From Torpedo marmorata (Eukaryota): a stretch of DNA of 64,000 nt. The notes beneath the pieces were generated by a model, which saw nothing but the letters and a program-made list of their open reading frames with translations, did not search any database and was not told where the DNA came from. This document shows, one piece after another, positions 6,001 to 58,368 of the stretch (positions are counted from its first letter, which is position 1; each line of letters begins with the position of its first letter). A program made the translations under genes and the position numbers. The stretch is from positions 187,550,001 through 187,614,000 of the forward strand of contig OZ360220.1 in assembly GCA_977017645.1 (NCBI GenBank), given 5' to 3'.

Positions 6001-6792
6001 GATAAGTTTAGTGTAGCAAATAATACAATCCTTGCTTACTATCAAATCAGAGCATTTTTAGTTGAAAGGTTGGGCCATAGTTTGATTTTACCAAGACAGA
6101 CAGATTTGAAATTATTAGTTACTACTGGAGGTTTTCCTAAATTTATTTCTCAAATGTATAGATTGTTACAGAAAAAATTGCCTAAACCAGGAGTTCACAA
6201 ATCAAGATTAAAATGGGAAGCAGATTTGAATGTAACAATAGATGAAGAACACTGGAAGGAATTAGGTAAACAAAGTATGACGAAGATTATCAATGTTAGA
6301 TATAGATTGGTGCAATATAATTTTTTTCATCAATTATATTTAACACCTAAAAGACTAAAGAAATTTAATCTGACATTATCTGGTTTATGTTTTAGATGTA
6401 ATAGTGAGGAAGGTTCCTTTGTACATTCTACATGGCTTTGTTCAAAGATGCAGGATTTCTGGTTGAAAGTTAAAAAGTTTTTAGACAAAGTATTAAGAAT
6501 TACACTCCCAATGGATCCTATGATATTTTTGTTTGGAGATATTAAAGGAACTAGTGTTAAAATGAAATTAGATATGTATCAAACAGAATTTTTACGTATT
6601 GCTTTAGCCGTTTCTAAGAAATGTATTGCCATTACATGGAAATCAGATGTAGATTTAGGGTTAGAAAGATGGCATGCAGAATTGCGTTCATGTTTACCTC
6701 TTGAAAAAATTACTTATAATTTACGTAATAAATATCATTTCTTTTTGAAAATATGGAGCCCATATATAAAAACTGTCGGTTTAAGGATTTGA
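3014..6792 (+). pseudogene. L1 ORF2p (endonuclease-reverse transcriptase) with several stops and frameshifts
   Basis: SININGL, LLQE, GGDFN, SRIDMF and SDHSP (APE); LDAEKAFD, TRQGCPLSP, LFADD and KYLGI (RT); CFRC...HSTWLC. Confidence 0.95.
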
Positions 6793-15087: not shown

Positions 15088-15631
15088 AGGTGCAGAGTTC
15101 CTGGAAAATGCAAACTCAGGTGGATAAGGTGGTGAAGAAGGTGTTTGGCATGCTGGCTTTCATTGGATGGGATATCGAGTACAAAAGTTGGAAACTCATG
15201 ATTCAACTGTCCAAGGCATTAGTGAGGCCACACTTGGAGTACTGTGTGCAGTTCTGGTATCCCAGCCATTAGAAGGCCATCCATAAACTAGAAGAGGTGC
15301 ATAGGAGATTCATTAGGATGTTGTTGGGACTGGAGGGGTTGAGTTATAGAGAGAGGTTGGATGGGCTGGGTCTTTATTCCCTGGAGCAGAGGCAGATGCA
15401 CAGATGATCTTATAGAGGTTTATAAAATCATGGGCACTGATAAAGTGAATGCTCACAGTCTTTTTTCGCAGGGTAGTGGATTTGTAGAAATAGAGAGCAT
15501 AGATTTAGGGTGAGATGGGAAAGATTTAGGAGGGATTTAAGAGGCAATTTTTCACTCAGAGGGCGGTCGATATATATGGTATGAGTTGCCAGAGAAAACT
15601 GTGGAAGTAGGCACAATAACAATGTTCAAAA
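15088..15631 (+). mobile_element. CR1 LINE 3' part (continues at 17690-17820 after the L1)
   Basis: QVDKVVKKVFGMLAFI...[13 protein letters not shown]; the 3' tail ggcatggactagttgggc follows the L1. Confidence 0.85.
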
Positions 15632-17689
15632 CCTTTAGCTGAAATGATTAGAGAAGATATAAATATAATGGGAATAAAAGTTGGTAGGGAAGAACATAAG
15701 ATTAGTTTATTTGCAGATGATGTATTAATATATATGACGAAATCTGTTGCATCACTTCAACAATTGGCTACTATATTGACAGAATATGGTGAGATATCAG
15801 GATATAAAATTAATTCAGATAAAAGTGAGATTTTGGCTTTATCTCAAGGGGATTATACTAGATGTAAAGAAGTTATAGACTTTAAATGGACTACAGAGAG
15901 TATTAAATATTTGGGAGTTAAAGTTGATACAAAATTAGAAAATCTGTATAAATTAAATTATATACCTTTACTTATGAAAATAAAAAAAGATTTAGAACTT
16001 TGGAAAGATTTACCTATAACTTTGATGGGAAGAGTAAATTGTATCAAAACGAATGTTTTTCCAAGAATTCAATATCTTTTTCAATCGATTCCTTATGGTA
16101 TTCCAAATAAATTTTTTAAAGATTTAAAATTTATTGTTAGGAAATTTTTATGGAAAGGAAAGCTGGCAAGAGTAAGTATAGATAAATTAACATGGAATTA
16201 TGAGATGGGAGGGTTACAACTTCCCAATTTTCAGTATTATTATAAAGTAGCTCAATTAAAGTTTATTAATGAATATTTTGATTTAAATAAATCTTCTGCT
16301 TGGATTAATATAGAATTGAATAATATAGGAGAAATATATAAAGAAGATATTATTTATAAATGGAATTCTAAATTACTATTACTTAAAAAGAAAAATACAC
16401 CAATTATTAAACATCTGTTGGAAGTTTGGTCACAAGTAGATAAAGAGATAGGTCAAAAGGGATCAATTTCTTTAAATACACCAATATATCAAAATCCGCT
16501 TTTACCATTTTCTATTGATAATCAGTTACTTAAGTTATGGTTTCTAAAGGGAATTAAGACTTTAAAAGATTGTTTTGAAGCTGGTAGATTTATTACTTTT
16601 CAGAGGTTAAAAGAAAAATTTAATATATTAGATAATACAATGTTAGTCTATTTTCAAGTTAAAGCTTTTTTGACCGAGAGATTAGGGAATGAATTAATAA
16701 CACCAAGACAAAATGAATTGGAATTGTTAATTACTAAAGTTAATGTTAATAAGTTTATATCACAAATGTATAAATTGTTTCAAAGAAAGATGTCTAAAGT
16801 AGGAGCGCATAAGTCTAGATTAAAATGGGAATTAGATTTAAATGTTAATATAGATGAAAATCATTGGAGAAATTTATGTAAATTAAGTATGACTAAAGTT
16901 ATTAATGTGAGATATAGATTAGTACAATATAATTTTTTTCATCAACTATATTTAACACCTAAAAAACTGAAGAAATTCAATCCAGCGTTATCAGATATGT
17001 GTTTTAGATGTAAAACTGAAATAGGTTCTTTTGTACACTGTACATGGTCATGTCCAAAAATTCAAGATTTTTGGTTGAAAGTTAAGAATTTTTTAGAAAG
17101 AATTTTTAATGTTGAAGTTATAATGGATCCTATGTTATTTTTATTTGGAGATATTAAAAAATTTAGTATCAGAAATAGATTAAATATGTATCAAGTAGAA
17201 TTTTTACGTATAGTATTAGCAGTTTCGAAAAAGTGTATAGCTATTACTTGGAAATCGGATGTTGATTTAAATCTAGAGAGATGGCATGCAGAGTTACGGT
17301 CATGTATACCATTAGAAAAAATTACTTATAATTTACGAAATAAATATCATTCTTTTTTGAAAATTTGGGGCCCATATATGAGGATTATGGGTTTAACATT
17401 GTAAATTTTCTGGATATCAGATCCGCTGGCGAAATAACCTCTAAGGTATATTAGTTTTTAAGTTTATTGACTCCTCACTCTATTTTTCTATCTTTTCTTT
17501 TTCTTTTTCTTCTTTTCATTATTTTACTTTAAAATTTAGAATAGGGGGATATAGGGGCTAGGGAGGGGAGGGTGGGAAGGGGGGGAGAAAATGTAATCAC
17601 ATGTATTTTTTAAGAATTATATGCAAAATTATTTTATGTAATCTGTGATTTAAAAATTTAAATAAAATATTTTTTTTTAAAAATAAATA
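15632..17689 (+). mobile_element. 5'-truncated L1 with 17-bp TSD
   Basis: TSD aataacaatgttcaaaa at 15615-15631 and 17690-17706; ORF2 3' half; G-rich UTR; A tail. Confidence 0.95.
15644..17404 (+). CDS. L1 ORF2p C-terminal half, uninterrupted (586 aa; no promoter or N-terminus)
   Basis: LFADD, KYLGV, GGLQLPNF and CFRC...HCTWSC with no stops. Confidence 0.85.
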   Translation: MIREDINIMGIKVGREEHKISLFADDVLIYMTKSVASLQQLATILTEYGEISGYKINSDKSEILALSQGDYTRCKEVIDFKWTTESIKYLGVKVDTKLENLYKLNYIPLLMKIKKDLELWKDLPITLMGRVNCIKTNVFPRIQYLFQSIPYGIPNKFFKDLKFIVRKFLWKGKLARVSIDKLTWNYEMGGLQLPNFQYYYKVAQLKFINEYFDLNKSSAWINIELNNIGEIYKEDIIYKWNSKLLLLKKKNTPIIKHLLEVWSQVDKEIGQKGSISLNTPIYQNPLLPFSIDNQLLKLWFLKGIKTLKDCFEAGRFITFQRLKEKFNILDNTMLVYFQVKAFLTERLGNELITPRQNELELLITKVNVNKFISQMYKLFQRKMSKVGAHKSRLKWELDLNVNIDENHWRNLCKLSMTKVINVRYRLVQYNFFHQLYLTPKKLKKFNPALSDMCFRCKTEIGSFVHCTWSCPKIQDFWLKVKNFLERIFNVEVIMDPMLFLFGDIKKFSIRNRLNMYQVEFLRIVLAVSKKCIAITWKSDVDLNLERWHAELRSCIPLEKITYNLRNKYHSFLKIWGPYMRIMGLTL

Positions 17690-29560: not shown

Positions 29561-30417
29561 GTTGAAAAAGGGCTGATGGCAGAGTGAGAGTGAGTTATAA
29601 AAAGATTTTAGTCCAGGAGGTACTGAGGTGTTCAGATAGATGCTTGGGAACTTGACAAGAAGTTGCATGGAAAACAGTTACATTTCAGGTGGGGAAAAGC
29701 ATGGAGCAAAGTGGGACCATCTCCTGAACATAACCACTCACCTCCAACCTTAAGTTTCACTACACATTATCTTTGGTGAGCTACGCAGGTGGTTACAAAA
29801 CTGGAAGCACGAGAGACCACGTAGGCTGGTATCTGGAAACTCACTCACCTCCAGCAGATTGCTTTTGTTGCTCCACATTCAGCATCGGCAGCCTCTCGTG
29901 TCTTCAGTCTTGAAGGGGATCTGGTCTGAAATGCCAATAGTTTTTTTTCCCCACTGATGTTGCTTAACCTGCTGAGTTCCTCCAGCAGATTGATTTTTGC
30001 CACAGGTGATTTGCAAAACACGTAATGGCAGTCCACAATAAGATAATGGGTCAGCAATTTTAGGACTAATTTGAGGAAAATTCCTTCACTCGGCAGGTGA
30101 TAATATTTTGAAATTTCTCCACTCAAAGGAAGGACATAATTGCAACAGGAGAGCAATAATTTGATTCCTGGAATGTCAGGTTTATCCCATGAGGAGAGAT
30201 TATGCCGACTGGAACTACACTCATTTGTAGATTGAAAAATGAGAAATGATCTCATTAACATATAAAATATTCTTACGAGGCTTGACAGGCTAAATGCAGG
30301 AATTATGTTTGCCTTGGCAGGGTTATCTAGAACCAGGGGTCACCTTCCTAATGAAGAGGTGAACACTAAGAAGAAATGTCTTTACCTGGAGTGGGTTGAA
30401 TCTTTGGAATTGTCTAC

Positions 30418-31042
30418 TGCGGAGGAAATGTGGCCTCCCTGTCTGTCTGGAATGTGTGTATTGCGGGTGGTCATGTGTCTTCCCCGTCTGAAACTTATTC
30501 GGAAGCAACATCACCTGTCAATCAAGGTTGGACTCTGGCCACCCATCAGTGTACACCTTGCCGTTGGCTAATTTAAATCACCTAGGGTCATTATTGGCTA
30601 GAAGCACAGATTAGCACTGTATATAACACCAACGCACAGCACATTCTTTCTCTCTGCCTCATGGTCCAAGCCCCGGACATCGCTCCACGCCAGGTCGCTA
30701 CTGTGGACATCGCTGGAAGTGTCACGGGTAAGGTGTGCACTACACTGAAGCTGAGCCGTAGTATTGCGATAGATCAATACTTGAAGGGAGCCACACCCCT
30801 GTAAGAGTCCCTGTTGTAGTGTGTGAGCGGGTCGAGAATAGGTTTACCGTTGTCGGAGTCCAACCGAAGTCCGAGGTGAATGTCTATATCGTCGCTCAAG
30901 TGAAATAGTGATCGAGTACCGTTTAACATTCTCCCCTGTTTGTTTCCCGTGTGTTAATAATAGTTACGTGTGATTGTAGCATTTGTGTCCAGACTCATCT
31001 CTCTGTGAACCCAATGAACCTGATACTCTTCCCAACACGATA
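30418..31042 (+). repeat. 5' LTR
   Basis: Aligns with 34426-35060; TATATAA at 30620-30626; donor-like GG|GTAAGG at 30728; ends caacacgata. Confidence 0.9.
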
Positions 31043-31044
31043 AT

Positions 31045-31063
31045 TGGCGCTGCGAGCAGGGTT
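31045..31063 (+). promoter_or_regulatory. Primer-binding site, tRNA-Ser-like
   Basis: TGGCGCTGCGAGCAGGGTT, 2 nt after the LTR, is complementary to ...AACCCTGCTCGCAGCGCCA, which resembles vertebrate tRNA-Ser 3' ends. Confidence 0.75.
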
Positions 31064-31597
31064 CAAAGAGTTTCGGCTGGACACACGTGGAGTCTTAACC
31101 ATGTGGGAGTGGAAGATCATACTAACAATGTGTGAGATTATATGAATAAGTGTGTGTGTGGGTGTCCTGTCGGGTGCATGTGTGATTGTGTACCTGCTCA
31201 CCAACGGGGGCAGGAGGAGGCAACCCACAGATAGGGAAGGGACCCCAGGGTCGGATTATAAAATCCCCGGGTGGACCGATGACCGTCAGGGGTTCAGCCG
31301 TTTGGTGGCATGGCTGGCAAGCCACGCCATGCCAGTCAATTGGGTCGACAGGTTGGACCCCCACGGAGAGAAGATAGGGCTCCATGTGGTCTCCCACCTG
31401 GTGTTACTGGGGTTTCCCAAGGCCAGGGGAGTTGTGGGGGAGCCCTATGGGTACTGATATCCCTACTTAGGCGCCAGTGGGGTATCACGTCCAGGTTAAG
31501 TAGTCAGGGCGCCCAGAAAGATAGGGAGATAGAATTCCTGCAACATGACTGTTGTGAACTGCAAGAGGCAGTGCAGATTGCCCAAGGGCAAGTGAAG

Positions 31598-31797
31598 TGG
31601 CTCCATAGCTCAGTGGTTAGAGCTCTGGTCTTGTAAACCAGGAGTTGCGAGTTCGTTCCTCGCTGGGGCCTCATTTCTGTGAGGGGCGCTGGACAAAGTA
31701 GTGACTCTCTGTCTTCCTTACGGTAGACAAAGAATTTCATGTATGTTACATTCTAAATGTAGTATACCGTGAAAATAATGGAACCTTTACCTTTACC
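31598..31797 (+). mobile_element. 200-bp tRNA-Thr SINE inserted into the ERV gag
   Basis: Removing exactly 200 bp restores the gag frame (GQVK|NLEIKIMEAAS); ends in a cctttacctttacc repeat. Confidence 0.8.
31599..31671 (+). tRNA. tRNA-Thr(TGT) copy forming the head of a SINE (probably a pseudo-tRNA)
   Basis: GGCTCCA..TGGGGCC acceptor stem, CTGGT-CT TGT AA-ACCAG anticodon arm; T loop reads GTTCGTTC; no oligo-T terminator; followed by a LINE-type tail. Confidence 0.85.
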
Positions 31798-34119
31798 AAC
31801 TTAGAAATTAAAATCATGGAGGCAGCTTCCAAGCTGATTAAAACACAGCAGCTGCAAGCAGCTCGCTGGTCTGACTCGCAGCTTGACTCAGGAAAAGTCC
31901 GAGCCATTGCCCAGCGGGGGGAGGGGATCGATACGTGTTTGGGGGATGGGTATGTGAGGATGGATGGTGATAGCCCTGAGGAAACTGAGTCTCATGACAC
32001 ACTTCCTCCTCCCTGCGCACCCGGCCTTTACAAGCCCGACCAGTGACCATGCGGTCCCAGGTCTGCCACAAGGGCACCCCGCCGACCCTCCAAAATGGGG
32101 AGGTAGCCGAAAATGGGGGGACCTTGGGTGGGTACGTAGATGGTCACTGTGAGATAATGGAGTCCTGGGACTACTCTGCTAAGGGGCTAACCGGGCGAGG
32201 GGACCGATACCACAAGCGGCCAAGCAAACACTTATAGTAGCCATGCCGCTACTTCAGTTAGGAGATGAGGGGGCTCCCAATTCCCTTCTCTCTCATTGGG
32301 AAGCGAGCGCCATGGGCGGTCTGTCTGACCAACAGATGATTGCCAACGCCTTGCAGGCGCCACCAGAAGGGGTCGATGATGGCACCACACTGTGGGAACG
32401 GGTGGTGACTGTGTTTCGGGGCAGGCTCCCTGCCCTCCTACAATGTGGCCTGCATGGCCGGCCGCGGTGGTACACCGTTGGCGAGGAGACACCGGTTTCT
32501 AGGGAGTGGGCACTGATCATGGGTATCTACGGGGGCGCCCGCGAGCACTACTTCCCAGGGAGCACAAAGGTGACTGGTGCCTTGGCGGGCTATTTAGTCA
32601 CCACCGCATGCCCGACCTTAGAGGGGTGGTCTTGTCCCTCATGGGGCTGGCGACCGGGAAAAACATCCGGGAAGCCATTACCCTCCTGGAGGGATCGGAG
32701 TATATGGAGCGGGGAGCACCCACTCATGTTTGCAGGGCTGAGGGGAAGTTCGGTGACGTCACCCTTCCGGTGACTTACGGAGACATGTATGCTCTCTGGA
32801 GAGAGCATAGCGGGGAGAAGCCCATGGGGGTGGAGCTTTTCGTGCCCTGCCCACTCCAACCTGGACCAGCCTCCCCTCTGGTCCTCCCCCACCAGAGGTA
32901 GCCCCTGACTAATCTATCTTTTGAGCTCTCCCAAACCCACCCCCCTCCACAGGATAAGACTACCCTTCAAGCTGTTCCTCTTCTCAATGTGAGGGTCTAT
33001 GAAACGCTCATCAAAACAGACTGCTGCAATCCCATCACTGATTTCAGTCACTACATCAGCTCGTTTTACCTGCAGGAGCTTTTGTCACTTATTATGCACA
33101 GAACTTTCAAGCAGACATACGACAGCTGTTGCCATGGAAACGTCAATCATTGGCCATTCAACTGCATCTTTTGTTATGCACCTTCCAAGTACAGCCTTTG
33201 TAACTGACCTTTTTTTATTACACTCTGAGCTTTGGTATCTACTCTGCATAATGTCTCTCAGCATACTCAAGAAATTGTACTTTCAGCTTTTAATTACGAC
33301 GTTACAGATCACACACTAGCAGGAAATATTGTATATATTTTGTTTCACTTGACAATGACTGCATCGCCCCAGCCCTCCCATTAACAGAAACAAATACCTC
33401 ATGGGATGGGGGCTTCAGGAGCTTTTATTTAAAATCACAAATTGGCTAACTTTCAGTCCCTACTCCTCCTGGCTATCATTACAGGGATCCAACACAGGCA
33501 CTTTTGGCACCCGTTTAAATAGAACGCGAGCAGGAGCGGCATCCTGGTGTTGGACGACAGCCCAGGAAAAAGGGGCGCCCCGGGTACATCCTGGATATAC
33601 GTCTGCTGGCCTGTCCCCTGCCTCACCACGGGATAGCACAGCGACGGCCATCTGGGCGCTGTGTTTAGGGAGTGCCAAAGCGTGAGGCCAAGGCGTGGGA
33701 TGCGTGAGCCAAGAGAGGGCTCTGGCACCTGATGGATGACCTTGCACTGCCTGCTCGCAGACGTTGGTGGTAAGGGTGCTCACATTTTCCAGCTCAGCCG
33801 GAGAAACCAGGCATGCGAGTCGGGGACCAGACAAATTACTTTCTCTACCCTCCCCTCTGACACTGGGGAGCAGCTCCCACAGCACCCTGCTCCATCAGAA
33901 ACACAGCGACCCTGTTTGGCCGGGGGGGGAGGGGGGGGGAGCTGGTGAGGCGTTGTCATTGAATTTGATTACGTGCCTTGTCCAGCATACGGAAGGCACT
34001 TGTGTATATATTGATCTGCTTGATTTGCATTATTTTTATTTTAACATGTCTTTTTGTTCTTTTTTTTTCTTTTCCTTTTTTTTATAATTATAACATGTAC
34101 ATAGAGTTATTGATTGTCT

Positions 34120-34383
34120 TTTTTTTAAATTTAGACATACAGCACTGTAACAGGCAAATTCGGCCCTCCGAGTCTGTGCCACCCAATTTACACCCCATTA
34201 ACCTACACCCCGGTATGTTTTTAAAGGGTGGGAGTAAACCGGAGCCCCTGGATAAAAACCCACGCAGACACGGGGAGAACGTACAAACTCCTTACAGACA
34301 GCATGGGATTCGAACCCAGGTCTAGTCCTGGTTGCTGGTGCTGTGAAGGTGTTGCGCTAACCGCTACGCCAACCGTACCACCC
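34120..34383 (-). mobile_element. tRNA-derived SINE inside the ERV
   Basis: Reverse complement of the 29281 family. Confidence 0.9.
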
Positions 34384-34425
34384 TTCATAGTGATTGCAGA
34401 GTAATGTGACTTCCGAGGGGTGGAA

Positions 34426-35060
34426 TGTTGTGTGTGGAGGAAACATGGTCTCCCTGCCTGTCTGGAATGTGTGTATTGCGGGTGGTCACGTGTCCTCCCC
34501 GTCTGAAACTTATTCGGAAGTCACATCACCTGTCAATCAAGGTTGGACTCCGGCCACCCATTAGTGCACTCCTTGCCGTTGGCTAATTTAAATCTCCTAG
34601 GGTCATTATTGGCTAGAAGCAAAGATTAGCACTGTATATAACACCAATGCACAGCACATTCTTTCTCTCTGCCTCATGGTCCAAGCCTCGGACATCGCTC
34701 CATGCCAGGTTGCTACTGTGGACATCGCTGGAAGTGTCGCGGGTAAGGTGTGCACTACACTAAAGCTGAGCCGTAGTATTGCGATAGATCAATACTTGAA
34801 GGGAGCCGCACCCCCATTGGTCAGGGAACCGGGTGTGTGTAAGAGTCCCTGTTGTATAGGTTTACCATTGTCGGAGTCCAACTGAAGTCCAAGGTGAATG
34901 TCTATATCGTCACTCAAGTGAAATAGTGATAGAGTACCATTTAACGTTCTCCACTGTTTGTTTCCCGTGTGTTCATAAAAGTTACATGTGATTGTAACAC
35001 TTGTGTCCAGACTCGTCTCTCTGTGAACCCACCGAACCTGATACTCTTCCCAACATGACA
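34426..35060 (+). repeat. 3' LTR
   Basis: TGTTGTG...CATGACA immediately after the PPT; homologous to the 5' LTR. Confidence 0.9.
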
Positions 35061-35470
35061 TCTACCCAGTCATTGAGTGTATTCAGGTCATACCTTAAGG
35101 GAATGAAGAGATCTGGGGATGGTGTAGGAAAGTGGCAGAGAGGTGGAAGATCAGCAATTAACATTGAATAGTAGAGAGGGGCTAAGGACAAAAGGGACCT
35201 ATTCCTGCTTTTCTTCTTTAGGTGCTTATGAGTAGTGGTGTGTGTGTTTGATATGGAGTTGCTGGATTTAGGGGACACTAAGGGAATCGAGGTATTTGGG
35301 GAATAGGCAGGAATGTGGGCAGGTCATCATTGACATGAAGTATCCGAGGAGGTTCGAGGGGCCGATTAGGAGGTGCGGCAAAGTTTACATCCAGTGCTTT
35401 GCTGGAATCCTTCGTCACTTTAGCTCTTCTTTCTTACAACAGCGACTCAACTTCAAAAAGTACTTCATTA

Positions 35471-37769: not shown

Positions 37770-37939
37770 TGTAACTGTGCCTTGACCATGTGTTGGAGAA
37801 ATGCTGAAACTTGTTTGCACCAGTAGATCCTGGCCACACCGAGTACTGCGTGCATTTCTGGCCTCCTTACTTGAGAGAGGATATACGGACTTTTAGGAAA
37901 TGCAGAGGTTCACCAGCTTGATTCAGGAAATAAAGGGTT
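37770..37939 (+). mobile_element. CR1 fragment (continues at 41871-42305)
   Basis: ggccacaccgagtactgcgtgcatttctggcctcc, MQRFTSLI; resumes after the L1 TSD. Confidence 0.75.
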
Positions 37940-40900
37940 GGCACTGGGGTCATTGCAAATTAATAAATCTCCAGGGGAGGATGGGTTTCCACCTGAATTT
38001 TATAAAGAATTTAAAGGTCATGGCCAGAATTAACACGTACCTAAGCGAAGATCTGGACCCACTGCAATTCGCCTATCGTCACAATCGCTCCACAGCAGAT
38101 GCAATATCGCTGGCTCTCCACTCAGCTCTGGATCACCTCGAAAACAGCAATTCATACATACGGCTACTCTTCATAGACTACAGCTCGGCCTTCAATACCA
38201 TTATTCCCTCAGTGCTGGTCAAGAAGCTACAAACTCTAGGCCTCTGTACCCCACTCTGCAACTGGATCCTTGACTTTCTCATCGGAAGACCACAGTCAGT
38301 ACGAATTGGAAACAACGTCTCCTCCTCACTGATTATCAACACAGGCGCACCCCAAGGATGCGTGCTTAGTCCACTGCTCTACTCGCTATACACTCATGAC
38401 TGTGTGGCCAGGCACAATTCCAATGCCATATACAAGTTTGCCGATGACACCACAGTTGTCGGCAGAATCACAAACGGCAATGAGGAAGCGTACAGGAGGG
38501 AGATAGATCAGCTCATTGAATGGTGTAATGACAACAACCTCGAGCTCAACGTCAGTAAAACCAAGGAGATGATTGTGGACTTCAGGAGGAAGTCAGGGGA
38601 ACACAACCCAGTCCTCATCGAGGGCTCAGTCGTGGAGAGGGTCAAGAACTTCAAATTCCTGGGTGTCAACATCTCCGAGGATCTGTCCTGGAGCATCCAC
38701 GTGGATGCAATCACAAAGAAGGCTCGTCAGCGGCTATACTTTGTGAGGCGATTGCGGAGATTCGGTATGTCGCCAAAGACTCTCGTGAACTTCTACAGGT
38801 GTACCGTGGAGAGCATTCTAGCTGGTTGCATCACTGCCTGGTATGGTGGTGCCAACTCCCAGGACAAGAGCAAAATACAGAAGGTTGTTACCTCGGCCTG
38901 TGACATCACGGGCACCAAACTTCACTCCATCGAGGACATCTACATGAGGCGATGTCTTAATAAAGCAGCCTCTATCCTCAAGGACCCCCACCACCCAGGC
39001 CATGCCCTCTTCACGCTGCTTCCATCGGGGAAAAGGTACAGGAGCCTAAAGACGAGCACTCAACGGCACAAGGTCAGCTTCTTCCCTGCTGCCATCAGAT
39101 TCCTGAACAATCAATGAACCAAAGACACTAGTGCACTATTGTTTATAATTTTTATATAGTAATGTCGTTAGAATGGTTAATATGAATGTTAATTGCACTA
39201 TGATGCTGCCGCAAAGCACCGAATTTCATGACTTGTTCATGACAATAAATTCTGATTCTGATTCTGAGATCTTTTGATACCTCTATTTATGGAGGTGTTG
39301 GATCAGGCGGTCAGGACACATACCCTCCCGGAATCATTCTCAACAGCAATAATTACAGTGATACCAAAAAAAGATAGGGATCCATTAAAACTGTCTTCAT
39401 ATCGACCTATAAACAGGCTGGCAGATTTTTTGCCAAAATTGATAAATATGGACCAAATAGGCTTTGTACAAAAAAGACAAATAGTGGACAAAGTAAGCAG
39501 ATTGCTTAGTATAATACATCTGGCACAATCGAGAGGTGATCAAGGTGTTGCTGTGGCCCTGGATGCAGAAAAACCTTTTGAAAGAGTGGAGTGGGACTTT
39601 TTATTTAAAGTGCTGGAATGATTTGGACTTGGACAGAATTTCATAAACTGGATTAAGGCTTTATATAATAAGCCCCAAGCTAGAGTTGTGACCAATGGAC
39701 AAATTTCTTCAGCATTCCCACTATCCAGATCTACTAGACAAGGCTGTCCACTGTCTCCAGCTCTTTTTATTTTGGTTATAGAACCATTAGCAGAAGCTAT
39801 TCGGCGAGATCCAGAAATTAAGGGATTCAGGATTAACCAGGAAGATTACAAAATTAACTTATTTGCGGATGATGTACTGATTTACCTGACAGAACCAGCA
39901 GTTTCATTAGAAAAATTGCACTTAAAATTGGAAGATTATGGGAAAATTTCGGGTTATAAAATAAATTGGGACAAAAGCGAGATTATGCCACTTACGGGTG
40001 GGGAATATACTCAATACCAAAGAAATACTAATTTTAAGTGGCCGGCAAATGGGATAAAATATTCAGGTATCAAAACAAATAATAACTTACAAGATTTGTA
40101 TAATTTAAATTACCTCCCCTTGCTTATAAAAGCTGAAGAGGATCTTAATAGATGGGTGGCACTACCAATAACACTTATTGGTAGGGTCATCTATATAAAA
40201 ATGAATATATTGCCATGGGCCCAATACCTTTTTCAAACATTACCTATACCATTGCCTCGAAGGTTCTTTCAAGATTTAAATAAATGTATCAGGAAGTTTA
40301 TTTGGAGAGGTAAGGTAGCCAGAGTCTCCACTGAAAAATTAACATGGAGATATGAACTAGGAGGTTTACAACTCCCAGATTTTAACAAATATTATTGGGC
40401 AGCCCAAATGAAATTTGTCACCTCTTTTTTTGAAAGGGGAGACAAGTCTTCTTGGGTAAAGATGGAACTGCATAAGGTGGGAGAGAAGATAGCAGAAGAC
40501 TTTCTATACAAATGGGATAAAAAAAAAAAATCCAGTGTGAAAGAAACCCCCCTGTTGAAACACATAATTGATATCTGGCATAAAATAAATTATCAGATTG
40601 GGAATAAGGGGAGGTTATCTCCAAAAATGCCCCTGGCTCAAAATAGGTGTATACCTTTTACAATGGATAATAAGATCCTGGACGCCTGGTCCCGGAAAGG
40701 GATCAGATGTGTCGAGGATTGCTATGAGCAGGGACAACTTATGTCATTTGAACAATTAAAAAATAAATATGGTATTATGAACAACACACTCTTCTACTAT
40801 TTCCACTTGAGATCTTACTTAAGGGATAAATTGGGTCCATCAATGATCTTACCGAAATGCAGTGAAGTGGAGACTTTGATTCGAAAGGGGATCACAAAGA

Positions 40901-41870
40901 AGTTTATTTCAGCAGCCTATCTTTTACTACAAAAAGGAACCCCTAAACAGGGGCTACATAGATCTAGACAGAGATGGGAATCAGACTTGGATATAATAAT
41001 TAATGAACAAAACTGGTCCGACTTATGTCGGGAAAGAATGAAAAATACAATAAATATGAGATACAGACTGGTACAATATAATTTTTTGCACCAGTTACAT
41101 CTCCCGCCGCAAAAATTGAATAAATTTAAATCATAAATATCAGATAAATGTTTTAGTCGCGGCAAAGTAATAGGAACGTTTTTACATTTAACCTGGTCAT
41201 GCCAGGTAAAACCTTTCTGGACCGACTTAGGGAAACTCTTAGAACAAATTACAGAAATTCAGTTCCCACAACGCCTAGAATTATTTCTATTGGGCAATAT
41301 CTCCGGCGTAAGTCCTAAGATGAGGCTGTCAAAATTTCAAATAAAATTTGTGGAGATCACATTGGCGGTGGCCAGGAAATGTATAGCGGTCACATGGAAG
41401 TCTGATTCCCATCTAGGTATGACAAGATGGAATGAGGAAATGTACAGCTGTGTTCCCCTTGAGAAGATTACCTATAATCTTAGAAATAGATATGATATAT
41501 TTTTAAAGATTTGGACTCCATATTTACAATATATGGCTGTAAATCTATAGCTAGGCCCCTCCTCGCCTCCAGAACCTATGTCTATTTCCTCTTTAAAAAT
41601 CCGAGTATGCCAAGTAATTTAAGCCTGCGGGGTGGACGACGAACCTCCAACGTCTTCTTTCCTTTTCTACTTCAACCTTTTCTTATTCTATTCCTCTCCT
41701 TTCTTTCTTTTAGGGGGGAATTGGGTGGGTGGGTTTTTCTCTGTTTGTAATTTTGTTGTTGTTTTTTAGTATAATAGTCAGTAAATGAATATTATATTTC
41801 ATGATGTATTATTTTTGTTATTGATAATATGTTTGGCTTTAAAAAAAACCAAATAAAATATTTTTTTAAA
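37940..41870 (+). mobile_element. 5'-truncated L1 of a second, more divergent family, with 15-bp TSD
   Basis: TSD aggaaataaagggtt at 37925-37939 and 41871-41885; LDAEKPFE, TRQGCPLSP, LFADD and PLEKITYNLRN. Confidence 0.95.
38017..39266 (+). mobile_element. Young 5'-truncated Rex1/Babar LINE nested in the L1; RT frame intact to 39117
   Basis: [47 protein letters not shown]; (attctg)n tail; the L1 reads FYKEFK|DLLIP across the insertion. Confidence 0.95.
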
Positions 41871-43550: not shown

Positions 43551-43804
43551 TGTGGTAAACCACTATTGTATATACTATGGGCTGAGGACAAGTCTGAGCA
43601 TGCCCTGCTGTCTGTCCCGGTGGCTCCTCCCCCTTCCCCCTTGAATAAAGGCCTTGAGCCACTGACCCCGCCTCCAGTTCCGGGACAGTCCAGCAGGAAT
43701 CAACAGGTCAATTGTAGCTTGGCCCTGGCTCGGTTTTACTGTTAATAAAAGCCTTCGATCTCCCAGTACTTCCTGCCTCTGGTGAGTTATTGATAGGTGT
43801 ATCA
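43551..43804 (+). repeat. Gypsy 5' LTR (254 bp)
   Basis: TG...CA; boundaries confirmed by the solo LTR at 37404-37646; AATAAA at 43744-43749. Confidence 0.9.
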
Positions 43805-43828
43805 ATTTTATTAACAGTATTAAAACCG

Positions 43829-45202
43829 ATGGAGAACGTTTTGAGACCGGACAAGTTGGATATCGATCCCCTGGCTCAAGACGCCTCAAGCGCTTTTGAA
43901 CTCTGGCTACGCTGTTTCCAACCGTTCCTGAGGTCGATCACAGTAGTCAGCGAGGACGACAAACTAGACATCCTCATGTCCAGGGTAAGCCCTCGGGTGT
44001 ATAACACCGTTCGAGACTGCCAGACCTACGAAGGGGCCTTGGCAGCCCTAAAGAGACTGTACCTAACGCCCATGAACGCGGTCTACGCGAGACACCGGCT
44101 ATCGCAACGGCGCCAGCGACCCAGGGAGTCGATCTCCGAGTACATCCAGGACGTGCAGTCGCTGGTGCGGGTGTGCGACTGCAAAGCGCTGACGGCTGAG
44201 CAGCACGCTGATCTGCTGGCAAGGGACACTTTTATTATGGGGCTCAGGTCGGCATACATCCGCCAGCGATTACTGGAGCACGCCGATCCGACCCTTAAAT
44301 CCACAGTCCAGACGGCCCTCACGCTGGAGGCTGCGCTGAGAAACTCTGATGCTATGCAGGCGCAGCCTGCCTCGTGGACAGCCCCAACCGCCAGCCCTGC
44401 AAGCGAGATGACCGCCGCTGCCGTCAGCCGCGACCCGATCGCCGCCGCCGCCGCCATCCGTGAGCTGGCTGCCGCCGCCGCCGCCGCCGCCGCCCGAGAG
44501 CCCGCCACCGCCACCCGTGAGTTAACCGCCGTGGCCATTACCCGGGAGCCCGAGAAGTGTTACTTCTGCGGGCTCGACAAACATCCGCGCAAACGCTGCC
44601 CGGCCCGAGACGCGACTTGCTCCAGTTGCGGCAAAAAAGGCCACTACGCTAAGGCCTGCAGCTCCAAGCCGCGAGCGGGTCCGAGCAGCGCCGCGTGCGA
44701 AGTGAGGGAGCGGCCATCTTACCTGTCGTCACTTCCGGTGGCGACCTCGTGCGAGGAATGGAGGCGGCCATATTGGACCCCGGCACTTCCGGCACTGGCA
44801 CTTCCGGCGCGGCCATTTTACGGCCTCACCTCGGCACTTCCGGCACTTCCGGCGCCGCCATCTTGTAACGCCAGCCGCGGGCAGCCATCTTCGCCAGCGT
44901 CGGATCAAGACTGCACGTCGGATCAAGACTACGACTACGTCCCGACCCTGGCGTCCGTTACTCTTGATCAGAATGCGCCCCACCAGCTGTCCAGATCGAT
45001 GATGGACATATTAGTCGAGGGGCGTAAGACTACCTGCCTATTTGACACAGGCAGCACCGAGAGTTTTATTCACCCCGACACTGTCCAGCGCTGTGGCCTC
45101 ACGACTGTACCGGTAAGCCAGAGGGTGGCCATGGCGTCTGGCACACACACAACGGACATCCGGGGGGGGTTGTGTGGCGAACATTGTGGTGCAGGGCACT
45201 GA
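43829..45202 (+). CDS. Gypsy gag-protease (frameshift near 45170)
   Basis: MENVLRPDKLDIDP; CYFCGLDKHPRKRC and CSSCGKKGHYAKAC knuckles; LFDTGS protease; poly-Ala tract. Confidence 0.9.
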   Translation: MENVLRPDKLDIDPLAQDASSAFELWLRCFQPFLRSITVVSEDDKLDILMSRVSPRVYNTVRDCQTYEGALAALKRLYLTPMNAVYARHRLSQRRQRPRESISEYIQDVQSLVRVCDCKALTAEQHADLLARDTFIMGLRSAYIRQRLLEHADPTLKSTVQTALTLEAALRNSDAMQAQPASWTAPTASPASEMTAAAVSRDPIAAAAAIRELAAAAAAAAAREPATATRELTAVAITREPEKCYFCGLDKHPRKRCPARDATCSSCGKKGHYAKACSSKPRAGPSSAACEVRERPSYLSSLPVATSCEEWRRPYWTPALPALALPARPFYGLTSALPALPAPPSCNASRGQPSSPASDQDCTSDQDYDYVPTLASVTLDQNAPHQLSRSMMDILVEGRKTTCLFDTGSTESFIHPDTVQRCGLTTVPVSQRVAMASGTHTTDIRGGLCGEHCGAGH

Positions 45203-47522
45203 ATATCGGGGTTTTTCGTTACTCGTCATGCCCCGTTTGTGTGCGCCTGTACTACTGGGACTTGACTTCCAGAGTCACCTACGGAGCGTCACCATGCGCT
45301 ACGACGGGCCCCACCCTCCGATCACAGTGACTAACCCCCAGTACTTAAACAATATGCCCCAAACTACCTGCGGTCTCTCCACGCTGAAGATCCCGCCCCC
45401 GTCACTCTTCACCAACCTGACCCCTGACTGTAAGCCCGTAGCAACTAAGAGCAGGTGATACAGTGCAGGGGACAGGGCATTCATCAAGGCGGAGGTGCAA
45501 CGGCTACTGGGGGAGGGGATCATCGAGCCCAGTAACAGCCCCTGGAGAGCCCAGGTAGTCATAGTAAAGAACGGGGCAAAGAGCCGGATGGTGGTGGACT
45601 ATAGCCAAACAATTAATCGGTTCACGCAATTGGATGCCTACCCGCTACCGCGAATCGCGGATATGGTTAACCAAATTGCACAGTATAACATTTTCTCCAC
45701 CATAGACTTAAAGTCGGCGTACCACCAGCTTCCGATTCGCCGGGAAGACCGCGCGTACACCGCATTTGAGGCGGACGGCAGGTTGTTCCATTTCCTGCGC
45801 GTCCCCTTCGGGGTAACAAATGGGGTGTCCGTGTCCCAGCGGGAGATGGACCGCATAGTTGATCAATTCAAACTAAAAGCCACCTTCCCGTACCTGGACG
45901 ACATCACCATTTGCAGTCATGATCGCCAGGATCACGATAGGAACCTTCGGAGGTTCCTGCAGGCGGCCGAGACGCTGAACCTCACCTATAACAAGGAGAA
46001 GTGCGTGTTCGGGACTACCCGACTCGCCATCCTGGGGTGCGTCGTGGAGAACGGGGTGATTGGACCCGACCCCGACCGCATGCGGCCCCTGCTGGAACTT
46101 CCGACTCCCCATACCCCCAAAGCCCTTAAACGATGCCTCGGGTTCTTCTCGTATTATGCGCAGTGGGTCCCTAATTACGCGGATAAAGCCCAACCCCTCG
46201 TCAAATCCACCAAATTTCCCCTTGCAGCGGAGGCACGTGAGGCCTTCGACCTCATAAAAGGGGACATTGCCCGAGCAGCAATGCACGCGGTGGACGAGTC
46301 GGTACCTTTTCAGGTAGAGAGTGACGCATCGGACTTCGCGCTGGCTGCCACACTCAACCAGGCGGGAAGACCGGTGGCGTTTTTCTCCCGCACCCTTCAA
46401 GGCCCCGAAATTCGGCACTCCGCGGTTGAGAAAGAAGCCCAGGCCATAGTAGAGGCTATCAGGCACTGGAGGCACTATCTCGCCGGCAAGTATTTTACCC
46501 TGCTGACGGACCAACGCTCCGTCGCGTTCATGTTTAACAACCAGCAGCGGGGTAAAATCAAGAACGACAAAATCATGAGGTGGAGAATAGAACTCTCCAC
46601 CTACAATTACGACATCCTTTACCGGCCCGGGAAGCTCAACGAGCCCTCCGATGCTCTATCCCGGGGATCGTGCGCCAGCGCACAGATCGACCGGTTACAC
46701 GCCCTACATGACGACCTCTGCCACCCAGGAGTTACCAGGCTCTTTCACTTCGTGAAGTCACGGAACCTGCCATACTCCCTGGAAGAGGTCAGGACCATGA
46801 TCAGCAGCTGCTGGGTCTGTGCGGAGTGAAAACTGCAATTCTACCGCCCCGACAAGGCACAGCTGGTCAAGGCCACCCGCCCTTTCGATCGTCTTAGTAT
46901 CGACTTCAAGGGCCCCCTTCCCTCCACGAACCGCAATGTGTATTTTCTCAACATCATTGATGAATACTCGCGGATCCCCTTCGCCATCCCCTGCCCCGAT
47001 ACCTCAGCATCCTCTGCTATTAAAGCCCTCCGCCAGGTATTCACATTATTCGGGTTCCCCTGCTATATCCATAGTGACCGGGGATCCGCCTTTATGAGTG
47101 AGGAACTGCGGCAGTACTTGCAGACCCGAGGCATCGCCACCAGCAGAACCACGGGGTACAACCCACGGGGAAACGGGCAGGTGGAGAGGGAGAGGGAGAA
47201 CGCTACCGTAAAGGGTGGCCGGTGGCCCGTTGGCAGGAGGTTCTCCCGGACGCCCTCCACTCCATACGATCCCTCTTGTGTACCTCTACCAATGCTACCC
47301 CTCATGAATGTCTTCTTTCCTTCCCCAGAAAGTCGACCACCGGAACCACCCTCCCTGCCTGGCTGACGTCCCCGGGACCAGTGCTACTCCGCAAGCACCT
47401 ACGGAGTAGCAAGTACGAGCCCTTAGTTGAGAGGGTGCAGCTGACCCACGCGAACCAGCAATACGCATTTGTGATCTTCCCTGATGGGCGGGAAGACACA
47501 GTATCGATACGGGACCTGGCGC
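45174..47522 (+). pseudogene. Gypsy pol (RT, RNase H, integrase) with stops and frameshifts
   Basis: RMVVDY, IDLKSAYHQ, VPFGV, YLDD, ESDASD, LTDQ, HDDLCHPG..CWVC, IDFKGP, SDRG, GNGQVER. Confidence 0.93.
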
Positions 47523-52157: not shown

Positions 52158-55100
52158 CGGCCACGAGTGGAGGCTGTTCAAACAACGATTCATGCTGTAC
52201 CTGCAAGCCATTGGACTCGATAGCAAACCTGATGCACGGAAGATTGCACTGCTACTTACCGTGGCGGGACCTCAAGCACTAGAGGTTTTCAATACATTTG
52301 TTTTTGCCGAGGAAGAAGACCAGGGTAAGTTCGACAAGGTTATCGAAATGTTTGATGAACACTGTTCACCAAAGGAAAATGAAACGTTCAAGAGGTACAT
52401 GTTTTGCTCGCGCACACAGCTGCAGGGAGAGAGCTTTGATACTTTTTTAACGGGCTTGAAATTAAAAGCAAGAACATGCAATTTTGGATCGCTGCAAGAT
52501 TCAATGATCCGTGATCAAATTGTGTTCGGGATTATTGATAAGAAAGTGAAAGAGAGGTAGCTGCGAGAGACAGAGCTTACCTTAGCTGGAGCTGTGAAGA
52601 TATGCCACGCCAGTGAATTAGCTCTGCAGCACGCAAAAAAGTTTGGTGAGATTGCAAAAGCCAGTGAAAACAAAGCATAGGCATAGCCACAGTGTGTCCA
52701 CACACATAAACAAAAAAAGAGATATAGGAAACAACAAAAAGATGGAGAGACATTCAAGTGCAAACAATGTGGCACTCAACATACACCAAAACAATGTCCC
52801 ACCTATGGAAAAGTCTGTAAAAAAGTGCAAAGGGCAGAATCACTATGCAAAGCAATGTGTTTCCAAAGGGAAACAAAACAGAAGTGAAACTGTACACACC
52901 ATAGAAGAAATTGCTCTCAGTGATACACTTTTCGTTGGCATGGTAGTGCAGAAAGATTATAAACCAACAGACACTGAAGAGCCACACGTGAACAGAGTCG
53001 AGCAGGATAAGAGGACTGTGTCATTGCATACAAATGGAGCTAATATTCTTTTCAAGCTGGACACTGGGGCAAAGGTCAATTTGATCTGTGAGCACAACAT
53101 CAGGGCAATGAAGATAAAGCCATACATCCATGCAAATCTGTACAGCTCAAAGCCTACAATGGACAGAGCAAGGTGAAAGTTAAAGATAAAGAGCACCACC
53201 TCAGGTTCGCAGTAGTCCCAGATGGACATGAATCACTGCTTGGTGAGAAAGCATGTGAAAACTTAAGCCTAGTCAAAAGGGTGTACCACATTAACAGCGC
53301 CAATGCACGGAACAGCTTAAAGGAAATACTGTATCAATTTCTAGACATCTTCAAGGGGTTTGGAGTTCTACCATTCACCTATAAGATACAGTTAAAGGAG
53401 GATGCACAGCCAGTAGTGCATGCCCCGATGTGGGTTCCAGCGCCACTAAAAGAAAAGCTCAAGCAGGAACTCGACCGAATGACGTCACTAGGGGTCATAA
53501 AGAAAGTGGAGGAGCCCACAGAATGGGTGAATTCAATGGTGTGTGTCAAAAAGAAGAATGGTGACCTACGCGTGTGCATAGACCCAAAAGACTTGAATGC
53601 CAAAATAAAGAGGGAACATTATCAGATTCCGACCAGGGATGAAATTACAAGTGAGATGGCCGGTGCAAAGTTTTTCACCAAATTGGATGCATCCCAGGGC
53701 TTCTGGCAAATAAAACTGCATAAAGATAGCACAAAATACTGTACATTTAATACACCGTTTTGCTGATACTCCTGTCTGAGGATGCCTTTTGGAATTTCCT
53801 CAGCTCCGGAAGTGTTCCACAGGACAATGGAGCACATCATAGAAGGCATAAATGAGGTACGTGTGTACTTGGATGACATGATCCTATGGGGATCCACACA
53901 AGAACAACACGAGAGGCTCATCAAAGTGCTACAACGCATTCAGAAGTATGGGTTAAAGTTAAACAGAGAAAAATGTCAGTTTGGTGTAAAGGAAATCACC
54001 TTTCTGGGAGATAAACTGTCGGAGGCAGGTGTGGAGCCAGACAAGAGCAAGGTGAAAGCAATTTTAGAGATGCCCAGACCCACTGACAAAAAGGCATATT
54101 GAGAGTGCTGGGAATGATCAATTTCATTGGTAAATTCATACCAAACCTGTCTTCCAAAACAATGTACCTAAGGAAGTTGTTACAGGACAAATGTGAATTC
54201 AAGTGGACAGACAACCACGAGGAAGAATGGGGACGACTGAAGACCATTCTAACTACAGAACCAGTGCTTTTGACGTTCATTGACGCATCCAGAAGGACAA
54301 AAATATCTACGGACGCTACAAAAGATGGAATAGGTGCCGTACTACTTCAGGCTGTGGGAGAAGATTGGAGGCCAGTAGCATATGCATCAAGGACGATGAC
54401 AACGTCTGAATGTCGATATGCACAGATCGAGAAAGAGTGTCTAGGTCTGGTTTATGGACTCGGGAAATTCCACAGTTATGTGTATGGTCTACCAACATTC
54501 GTGGCAGAGACAGTACACAAGCCATTAATAGCGATAATCAAGAAAAATCTCAGTGAAATGTCGCTGAGAATCCAAAGACTGATGATGAAGCTACATCGTT
54601 ATGACTTTGAATTGGTGAACACACCAGGGAAACTTATTGTGTTAGCTGATGCGTTATCCAGGGCAACGACGCAGAGTGAAGCACACAATGAGAGTTACAT
54701 AGAGACAGATGTGAATCTTCATGTGAACCTGATCACTGAATCTCTTCTCGTATCTGACATGAAATCCAAGCAGATCGCAGCTGAACCAGAAAAGGACACA
54801 GTTCTACAGAAGGTCATCAAGAATCTGAATGAAGGATGGCCTGGAGGTGAATGTCAGCCATACTACAACATCAGAGCTGAGCTGAGTGTTGACAATGGGC
54901 TTCTACTCAGACAGAGCAGAATTATCATTCCTCAATCACTGCGACAAGAGATGCTGAAAAGGGTGCATGAGGGGCACCTTGGAATGGAAAAATGCAAGAG
55001 GAGGGCCAGAACTGCTGTTTATTGGCCAGGGATAAATGCTGACATTGACAGGATGGTTTCCAGCTGTGAGACCTGTTTAAAACATCACACAAAGCAGACA

Positions 55101-56317
55101 AAGGAACCCATGATAATAACTGACTACCAGCAGAACCATGGGAGAAAGTTGGGACTGATCTGTTCCACATGGATGGAAAGAATTACTTGCTGGTTATTGA
55201 TTATCTATCGAACTATCCGGAGTTTGCGCTGCTTCCTAATATGTCTGCTGCTTGTGTGATCAAATATATGAAATCAATCTTTGCAAGACATGGAATTCCT
55301 CAAATTGTCTACAGTGACAATGGACCATGCTACAGCTGTAGAGAATTCCAGAACTTTGCAGAAGAGTATGATTTTCGACATGTGACTTCAAGTCCTCTGG
55401 ATCCACAGTCAAATGGTAAAGCAGAGAAAGGAGTTCACATAGTTAAACAGTTGCTCAAGAAAGCACTAGACAGTGGCTAAGATCTGTATCTAGCTCTATT
55501 GAGTTACAGAGCTTCACTACTTGAACATGGCATGTCACCCGCTGAGCTTCTGTTGGGACGTAGACTATGCACCACACTTCCCTACTCTGCAGACCCAAAC
55601 AAGAACAGGGAGGTCGAAGATGTCGAACGGAAACAAAAGTGTCTGCAATGGAGACAAAAAGCAAACTATGACAAGTCAGCAAGAAGCTTAGGGCCACTGG
55701 CACAACATGACGCAGTGAGACTCAGAGATTCCAACACTTGGGACAAAAAGGCTACTGTTCTGGAGGAAGTAAATCCAAGATCCTACACTGTCAGAACAGA
55801 GGACGGTCAAATACTGAGGAGGAATTGAAAAAGCCTGCTGAAAACGCAAGAGACACTGCAGGAACAGACAAATGCAGAAGATCCAGCCTGCACAGCAACA
55901 GAGGAAACACCACCAGTGCTAGACAGTAGTGGACCAGCAGAGCCGACACAAGCACCTGTGTTAAGAAGATCCACATGTGTTATCAAAGCACCTGACAGGC
56001 TGAATCTCTAAAAGAAAAAGAACTGCACACTTCAAAGTTTGTGTTGCTGATGTTGTGTTTACATTTGTGTTGAACTTTAAATTGAAATAAATACTGTATT
56101 AGTGTGTCATGTTGTTAGATTAAACATCTCAAGGAAAGGGGATGTAATGATAGAGTGCTAGTGATCCTCCTGACCACTAGAGGGATCGGAGACTAGTTTG
56201 TTGGAGCTCGGCTGGATTCAAGATGGATGCCTCCACACAGTCATGTGTATAGCTAATAAAGTATATTTGTTTTAAAAGAACCCAAGTTTCTTTATTGCAA
56301 TAAAAAGAAACATAACA
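52158..56317 (+). mobile_element. Ty3/Gypsy (Mag-like) LTR retrotransposon, 5' LTR missing, decayed gag-pol (to 56011)
   Basis: KIALLLTVAG, MIRDQIVFG, FKLDTGA, RVCIDPKDLN, LDASQGFWQ, YLDD, YAQIEKE, HEGHLG, SDNGP, SNGKAE, RRS...PDRLNL; PPT aaggaaagggga at 56131-56142. Confidence 0.93.
56143..56317 (+). repeat. Gypsy 3' LTR (175 bp)
   Basis: TGTAATG...CATAACA directly after the PPT; contains AATAAA. Confidence 0.75.
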
Positions 56318-57099: not shown

Positions 57100-58368
57100 A
57101 TTCAGATTTCAGATTTATTGTCAGAGTACATACATGACATCACATACAACCTTGAGATTCTTTTTCCTGCGGGCAAGGCAAAATTACCACTTATTGGTAG
57201 TGCAAACAAAAACTGTACACAATGTACACGTGTAAAAAATAAATAAATGTAAACAACTGAATGTGCAATACAGAGAGAAAAAAAAACAAACAATAAAATG
57301 CAAAAGTAAGAGTCCTTAAATGAGTCTCTGACTGAGTTTATTGTTAAGTAGTCTGATGGTGGAGCGGTAGCAGCTGTTCCTGAACCTGGTTGTGCAAGTC
57401 TTGTTGAACCTATACCTTTTTCCTGATTGTAGCAGCGAGAACAGGGCGTGTGCTGGTTGGTGTGGATCTTTGATGATTGCTGCTGCTCTCCGACTGCTGC
57501 GTTCCCTGGAGATGTTCTCACTGGTGGGGAGGGTTTTGCCTGTGATGTCCTGGGCTGTGTCCACTACCTTTTGGAGGGCTTTCTGCTCAGGGGTATTGGT
57601 GTCCCCATACCAGACCATGATGCAGCCGGTCAGCACACTTTCCACTACACATCTGTCGAAATTTGCCAGGTGAAGCAAATCTGTTGAATTTGCCAAGTGA
57701 ATCAAATCTGTTGAAATACCAAACCTCCGCAAACTCCTGAGGAAGTAGAGGCGCTGATGTGCTTTCTTCACGATGCCATTGGTGTGTGGGTCCAGGAAAG
57801 ATCCTCCGAGATAGTGACTCACAAGAACTTAACTTTACTCACCCTCTCCACCTCTGATCCCCCAATGATCACTGGATCGTACACATCTGGTTTTCCCTTC
57901 CTGAAGTCAACAATCAGCTCCTTGGTTTTGCTGACATTGAGTGCGAGGGCATTGTTGGTGCACCATTCAGCCAAGTTTTCAATCTCCCTCTTGTATGCTG
58001 ACTCATCGCCCCTTTATATAAAACCCACTACCGTGGTATTGTCAGCGAATTTGTAGATGGTGTTGTTGTCATGCTGAGCCACACAGTCATAGGTGTAAAG
58101 CGAGTAGAGCAGGGGGCTAAGAACACAGCCCTGTGGTGCTCCGGTACTGATGGAGATTGTGGAGGAGATGTTCTTACCAATCTTCACCGATTGTGGTCTG
58201 GAGGTGAGGAAATCCAGGATCCAATTACACAGTGGGGTGTTGAGTCCCAGGTCTTGGAATTTGCTGATCAGTTTTGAAGGGATAATGGTGTTAAATGCTG
58301 AACTGTAGTTAACAAAGACCATCCTGATGAATGCATCTTTGCTGTCTAGGTGTTCCAGGGCTTTGTGA
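57100..58368 (-). mobile_element. Rex1/Babar LINE, 5'-truncated (same family as 12036-14075)
   Basis: [36 protein letters not shown]; (tctgaa)n tail. Confidence 0.92.

Follow-up and report, generated by a model that had tools for sequence, protein, structure and literature searches.

A gag-only class III-type endogenous retrovirus family in the electric ray Torpedo marmorata, with a mosaic origin from two pol-bearing lineages

The window examined here is a stretch of 64,000 nucleotides of Torpedo marmorata (assembly GCA_977017645.1, contig OZ360220.1, positions 187,550,001 to 187,614,000, forward strand). At 30418-35060 it contains an element bounded by long terminal repeats (LTRs) with a broken gag between them, which a sequence-only reading of this DNA had taken for a gag-only class III endogenous retrovirus (ERV) similar to the mammalian MaLR elements. 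The features of the element are listed below, where SINE denotes a short interspersed element and lineages B and D are two of the pol-bearing lineages of relatives found in the same genome.

30413-30417, no strand: left target-site duplication (TSD) TCTAC, flanking the element
30418-31042, plus strand: 5' LTR of B3-helper type, 7 nt short at its start relative to the family LTR; a TATA-like box lies at 30620
31045-31062, plus strand: primer-binding site (PBS), 18/18 complement to host tRNA-Ser(CGA)
31101-31199, plus strand: gag start and hydrophobic N-terminal segment (predicted signal-anchor), then basic residues; contains a stop in the window copy
31101-32912, plus strand: class III-type gag, disrupted in the window copy by stops, frameshifts and a SINE
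31598-31797, plus strand: first SINE, tRNA-derived, its head called tRNA-Thr by ARAGORN; inserted after integration and private to the window copy
32910-32922, plus strand: pro-pol deletion junction that defines the family; the gag stop is created here
32922-32985, plus strand: post-integrase sequence, lineage D type by sequence comparison
33004-34414, plus strand: 3' region also found in env-less lineage B, with short matching patches in the env-remnant region of lineage D
34120-34383, minus strand: second SINE, private to the window copy; further copies elsewhere in the window
34415-34425, plus strand: polypurine tract, preceding the 3' LTR
34426-35060, plus strand: 3' LTR (TGT...ACA); the family LTR begins TGTTGT
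35061-35065, no strand: right TSD TCTAC, flanking the element

The two LTRs align with 565 matches, 40 mismatches and two indels of ~20 bp, a Kimura two-parameter distance (K2P) of 0.070. The PBS is complementary to the 3' end, with CCA added, of a tRNA-Ser(CGA) gene of the same genome (L044). Both SINE sites are empty in other copies, where the sequence is continuous over 31595/31795 and 34120/34383, and with both SINEs removed the internal region measures about 2.92 kb. Ten open stretches of the element gave no Pfam family, and tblastn gave no integrase or env match inside it, including env against its 3' region. From the patches matching the env remnant of lineage D, this 3' region is likely a decayed env. 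The sequence-only reading had already described the paired LTRs, the tctac duplication at both ends, the Ser-type primer site, the polypurine tract, two SINEs leaving an interior of ~2.9 kb and the absence of protease, reverse transcriptase (RT) and integrase, and all of these were recovered. Its decayed 1.8-kb open reading frame (ORF) is indeed a broken gag, about 1.6 kb once the SINE is subtracted, though the hydrophobic segment at the start had been overlooked; its LTR pair stands, with the start of the 3' LTR moved to 34426 since the family LTR opens TGTTGT. Two other loci, L041 and L043, carry tRNA-Ser 3' halves ending in CCA without the 5' half, and stem either from other LTR elements with an extended primer site or from retrocopied tRNAs.

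A gag DNA query found 3,171 candidates in the 6.2-Gb genome; 40 were scored, and the 39 non-self loci among them fetched. Eight of the 39 proved to be repeats of one duplicated insertion and were later excluded, leaving 31 distinct copies selected by similarity to the window. All 39 are colinear with the window element minus its SINEs, and the gag-to-3' junction, placed near 32900 in the sequence-only reading, is covered by a single alignment in 36. A 27-nt pattern across the junction has 315 exact genomic matches on many contigs (reversed control, 0) and is exact in 6 of the 31 distinct copies and in none of the pol-bearing loci. The family numbers at least several hundred copies, and scaling the 315 matches by 6/31 gives roughly 1,600, an estimate good to two- or threefold. 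Among 24 gag-only loci with an LTR pair, 6 have perfect 5-bp TSDs, no two of them alike; perfect 5-bp TSDs also flank 3 of 17 pol-bearing loci with an LTR pair, and no TSD of 4 or 6 bp was found in either set. Contigs across the junction are also present in sequencing runs of three organisms, from three studies; one of these organisms may be the source, and no RNA run was listed among those carrying the junction. The longest stop-free stretches in natural gag-only copies reach 495 codons.

Several fetched loci have features of their own. One insertion with a truncated 3' LTR is present nine times in identical layout (L018, L023, L024, L033-L036, L038, L039), several times on small contigs, and reflects segmental or tandem duplication or redundant haplotigs. 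In L001 (3752-7660) a gag-only copy is interrupted by a long interspersed element (LINE) with a 1,303-codon stop-free endonuclease-RT frame and a 17-bp overlap, which suggests a young LINE family. Four gag-only loci (L027, L174, L175, L182) share a tandem duplication of an 80-bp gag piece matching window 31516-31595.

Pol-bearing relatives, which the sequence-only reading had proposed as helpers elsewhere in the genome, were found among 100 pol-side loci fetched by two RT searches and one gag-end/protease search. They have near-identical LTRs and, in all lineages, the same Ser PBS; their gag is 45-55% identical in protein to that of the gag-only family, and their domains are RVP, RVT_1, tether plus RNase_H, and rve. 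The order protease, RT, tether, RNase H, integrase, together with env, is that of retroviruses rather than of Gypsy or BEL elements. RT trees divide these loci into lineages A, C, B and D. A gamma-type env is present in A (14 of 19 loci) and C (5 of 9), D has weak env remnants, and B is env-less: none of 31 B loci gave an env match, with the post-integrase region visible in 24 of them. In A the env region is short (about 1.1 kb). A domain scan of 31 stretches gave TLV_coat in three and dUTPase in none; the env of A and C is of class I type. The helper RT is 39-42% identical (187-242 bits) to a HERV-L-type Pol (P0125), compared with 22% for a Gypsy-like RT in the window. Its closest RT relatives are from Hypanus and Hemitrygon (74-76% identity), and in the RT tree the relatives and a stingray protein form a clade (99/98) apart from the HERV-L-type rows (100/100). 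In the same tree two owl RTs (P0014, P0020) cluster with amphibian, lungfish and teleost RTs, away from those of other birds, a placement hinting at cross-class transfer in this clade.

Searching 1.84 billion proteins with phmmer gave eight matches to the ORF product, from stingrays, electric rays, a salamander and a snake plus one unnamed protein; the best Gag and RT matches were among Hemitrygon, Hypanus and Narcine proteins. The top match fuses a gag of the family type to a retroviral RT, and the Narcine match is named 'Friend virus susceptibility protein 1-like' (Fv1-like; E 5.5e-5). These relatives are of class III type, as the sequence-only reading had proposed from ERV-L/S Gag, and no Gypsy or BEL match was obtained. 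By eye, the order of motifs equals that of the HERV-L Gag printed in supplementary file 3 of PMC4724089. Other searches were uninformative: Pfam gave no retroviral Gag family for the window or sister gag stretches, a word-indexed protein search gave no match for the gag sequence or alignment, the ESM Atlas gave no usable match, and sequence searches of the PDB gave only coiled coils or noise. The Gag sequences P0001/P0002 have no Cys-His box (zinc knuckle), in keeping with ERV-L-type Gag. The coiled coil is predicted with high confidence, although the full-length model is poor (predicted local distance difference test, pLDDT, 59.5) and its structural matches are coiled coils only. A capsid-region model from a pol-bearing relative (pLDDT 80) matched foamy virus capsid (Z 5.1, root-mean-square deviation 5.4, 155 aligned), PNMA2 (Z 5.2) and Arc (Z 5.0), all weak and level with unrelated helical proteins, and Foldseek found no match for it at E<=0.001. 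Two ray gene models, P0005 ('sperm acrosome-associated protein 9 isoform X1') and P0007 ('zinc-binding protein A33-like'), contain gag-family pieces that are either annotation artefacts or exonised ERV sequence.

Comparison with the pol-bearing lineages indicated that the element has two parents. Median identities of the window copy to B3 and to sister copies are 87 and 87% in the LTR, 87 and 90% in the leader and 87 and 89% in the distal 3' region. In the coiled coil and capsid region identity to B3 is 66-68%, and the closer match is D (coil 76%, capsid region 77%, gag end 80%, post-integrase 81%). Within gag the 5' part, to about 31540, is of lineage B and the coiled coil, capsid-like region and C-terminus are of lineage D. 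By these comparisons the gag core and the junction derive from D, and the LTR, leader, Gag N-terminus and 3' region from B. A 66-bp in-frame loss near 32786 is common to the whole gag-only family, and the D gag extends about 35 codons beyond the family stop before protease begins, making the family gag ~35 codons shorter.

One gag-only core occurs under three B-type LTRs. For 19 junction loci, sampled by order of their coordinates, the closest LTR type was B3 in nine (two near ties and one weak included), B1 in four, L064-type in three and none in three, and a D-, A- or C-type LTR was the best match in none of 31 + 20 gag-only loci. In two loci, L176 and L184, the latter chosen because of a nearby RT match, helper gag or RT is joined to a gag-only 3' half. 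L176, L179 and L184 also form a subfamily, all with L064-type LTRs, that lacks about 370 bp of the capsid region from a single microhomology breakpoint; read at the breakpoint, the deletion is in frame. LTR-pair divergences overlap, at 0.050-0.084 for 12 gag-only pairs and 0.055-0.118 for four B3 pairs. Given that retroviral recombination requires co-packaging, the mosaic and recombinant copies are the best evidence that B particles would have carried gag-only RNA.

In B, D and the gag-only family, Gag opens with a run of about 20 hydrophobic residues and then basic ones; in A and C it opens with a short basic peptide. The hydrophobic N-terminus was found in 30 of 50 B loci (by DNA match), in 14 of 16 readable gag-only leaders and in 1 of 12 readable A/C leaders. 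An altered Gag N-terminus is paired with the loss of env, the exceptions being L070 and lineage D. L070 (1796-1980), an A1 provirus, combines env with a B-type leader and a hydrophobic Gag N-terminus, and is probably a recombinant. By analogy with mouse elements, in which a changed Gag N-terminus redirects particles to the endoplasmic reticulum (ER) or cytoplasm and env then decays (described for IAP and MusD in PMC2791754), the segment is predicted to direct assembly to the ER.

Taken together, we give a probability of roughly 0.8 to the reading that the window element is a decayed copy of a multi-copy, gag-only class III (ERV-L/ERV-S-like) family in which the absence of pro-pol is a shared trait and whose copying probably took place in trans and intracellularly, through its env-less pol-bearing relatives of lineage B. 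We infer both the use of this helper and the targeting to the ER. Several observations weigh against parts of this picture. The RT tree holds no class I or II references and its deep branching is without resolution, and the best solved-structure match of the stingray relative RT is murine leukaemia virus (MLV, 151 bits), followed by foamy virus (126). L070 carries env together with the hydrophobic segment, and D combines that segment with an env remnant. The link to the helper, drawn from sequence, is circumstantial.

Why the ORF was retained was addressed through net distances between natural copies over Gag codons 100-495. Since the split from D, nonsynonymous divergence (dN) on the stem is 0.080 (0.062-0.100) for the gag-only family and 0.013 (0.004-0.024) for the D branch. 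At 205 positions conserved in A, B and C the family has changed 34 and D 10; its changes include non-conservative, family-wide ones at sites conserved from rays to salamanders and snakes, and 22 residues of the conserved C-terminal Gag motif are lost. The frame itself remained open. The 31 copies hold 58 stops and 102 frameshifts, none common to more than four copies, and the only indels fixed relative to D are of 3 and 66 bp, with no fixed stop or frameshift against about 4 to 10 stem breaks expected at the per-copy decay rate, if the mutation process was the same and the assembly free of errors. Assembly errors may account for some of the private frameshifts, and errors of replication are unlike genomic decay; both points weaken this argument. 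The ratio of nonsynonymous to synonymous divergence (dN/dS) on the family stem is 0.44 (0.24-1.04) and 0.57 (0.33-1.25), compared with about 0.7 for post-insertion decay and 0.13-0.19 for the pol-bearing lineages, estimates so imprecise that partial purifying selection is compatible with them. A first run without lineage D gave low family-branch ratios that reflected an unsampled parent, and was replaced by the run that includes D. The frame was thus kept open while the protein drifted, and the simplest reading is that selection acted on translation and not on capsid function. As the cause we favour, tentatively and at a little short of an even chance, that translation of the ORF protects the RNA or brings it to the assembly site.

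Its main rival is a partly working Gag, in which family and helper are the same and Gag is still needed for co-assembly with the helper Gag-Pol, for packaging of its own RNA (cis preference) or for Fv1-like interference. An open frame, a confidently predicted coiled coil and stem point estimates of 0.44-0.57, under the neutral ~0.7, speak for such a Gag. However, a needed capsid sits badly with 34 of 205 conserved sites changed, with the non-conservative changes among them, with the lost C-terminal residues and the ~35-codon truncation, and with the amplification of a subfamily deleted in its capsid region, and this explanation is unlikely. It is improbable that mobilisation was mainly by D, or by env-bearing A or C through reinfection, with B-type LTRs acquired only late: the D-derived core and junction do imply that the first helper was probably D, and the Ser PBS is common to all lineages, but none of the 31 + 20 gag-only loci has an LTR closest to D, A or C, and D copies are more diverged (within-group dS 0.27 vs 0.15). 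A Gypsy or BEL gag in a non-autonomous LTR retrotransposon of those groups would suit the missing Pfam Gag match and the 5-bp TSDs, which are not exclusive to class III, but is refuted by the same gag standing upstream of a retroviral protease, an RT with tether and second RNase H and a gamma-type env, and by the far closer match of the helper RT to HERV-L-type Pol. Nor did the family arise as a single deletion in an ordinary provirus after its insertion, or as a set of segmental duplicates such as the nine L018-group loci resemble, given the 315 junction matches over many contigs, the different TSDs at six loci and the several LTR types.

For a gag-only family copied by lineage B, the course of events would be as follows. 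A D-lineage provirus lost pro-pol from the end of gag to the end of integrase, giving the single common junction. Its core was then joined, presumably after co-packaging, to parts of B subfamilies (LTR, leader, Gag N-terminus and 3' region), with at least three LTR types. B Gag-Pol could then have packaged the gag-only RNA, with tRNA-Ser as the primer and 5-bp TSDs made on integration, and the hydrophobic Gag N-terminus would route assembly to the ER, as in mouse IAP. Translation of an ORF with a helper-type anchor may protect the RNA or bring it to the assembly site, which would account for the pattern of an open frame. The two-parent mosaic, the LTR swaps, the hydrophobic N-terminus and the relaxed protein constraint were not anticipated by the sequence-only reading.

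MaLR elements have 5-bp TSDs, change LTR types over a common core and reach a copy number about a thousand-fold above that of the window family. As described in PMC11359688, which places them in eutherians, the ERVL-MaLR elements (MLT1, MST, THE1) resemble it in having no pol or env, a gag-like ORF of similar size (464 amino acids are cited for a THE1D copy), class III-related gag, great abundance and presumed intracellular spread. The window family likewise consists of LTR elements with a gag-like ORF and without pol or env, amplified as such, which is what defines the MaLR type. It differs in being non-mammalian, in its Ser primer and hydrophobic Gag N-terminus, and in parents and recombinants that are still readable, its gag being 76-80% identical in DNA to local lineage D and its cis parts 87% to B3. 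The family works like MaLR and is not MaLR, a likeness drawn from published description and not from MaLR sequence: no descent from a eutherian MaLR ancestor was found, and because gag is this close to a local pol-bearing lineage the origin is separate, as the sequence-only reading had suggested. To HERV-S and HERV-L (class III, HSERVIII supergroup) the likeness lies in the Gag motif order and in a Pol close to that of HERV-L (PMC4724089). Lineages A and C share with HERV-S, as characterised there, a tRNA-Ser primer, a class I-type env and no dUTPase, a likeness of features and not of orthology; the env-less state of B recalls ERV-L. From HERV-L the RT of this genome differs in forming its own clade with the stingray protein, at only 39-42% identity. 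Mouse IAP/IAP-E and MusD are class II elements, and the IAP Gag signal is hydrophobic. There too a change of the Gag N-terminus accompanies env decay and high copy number, with experimental proof (PMC2791754), whereas the present case is class III and read from sequence.

Elsewhere in the window, 43718-47189 holds the GC-rich body of a Gypsy-like LTR retrotransposon, with a 494-codon gag-protease stretch, a 456-codon RT/RNase H stretch and an integrase-like match, and 53092-55256 a second Gypsy-like pol remnant (RT, RNase H, integrase zinc finger). LINE ORF2 pieces (endonuclease, RT) lie at 2894-6789, 15620-17401, 37897-41133 and 58017-58790. A scan of 15 long open stretches in the window recognised none as a host gene.

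Clade III is the commonest RT class in the six chondrichthyan genomes surveyed in PMC11089739. Such surveys are RT-based and so blind to a pol-less family; they miss one of the order of a thousand copies. Cartilaginous fishes are already known to have class III ERVs, and non-autonomous ERVs are known as well. A gag-only class III family was not found for cartilaginous fishes in the accessible full-text literature, nor one outside mammals with readable parents, helpers and an IAP-like N-terminus; repeat libraries (Dfam, Repbase) and subscription journals lay outside this search, and the family may have been named there. It is possible, though we hold this more tentatively still than the translation reading, that every stage of one path survives in the ray genome, beginning with a class III retrovirus that had env, passing to a retrotransposon without env and targeted to the ER, and ending in a gag-only parasite that switches helper subfamilies and keeps its ORF only for translation. 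This would be an independent replay of the IAP and MaLR transitions, with readable intermediates that would explain the retention of the ORF in MaLR-type elements. The present results suggest that Gag retargeting with loss of env is a repeated route in the class III retroviruses of fishes. In a gag-only family young enough for both parents, the helpers, the recombinants and the further-deleted offspring to be read, the retention of the ORF becomes a question of counting.

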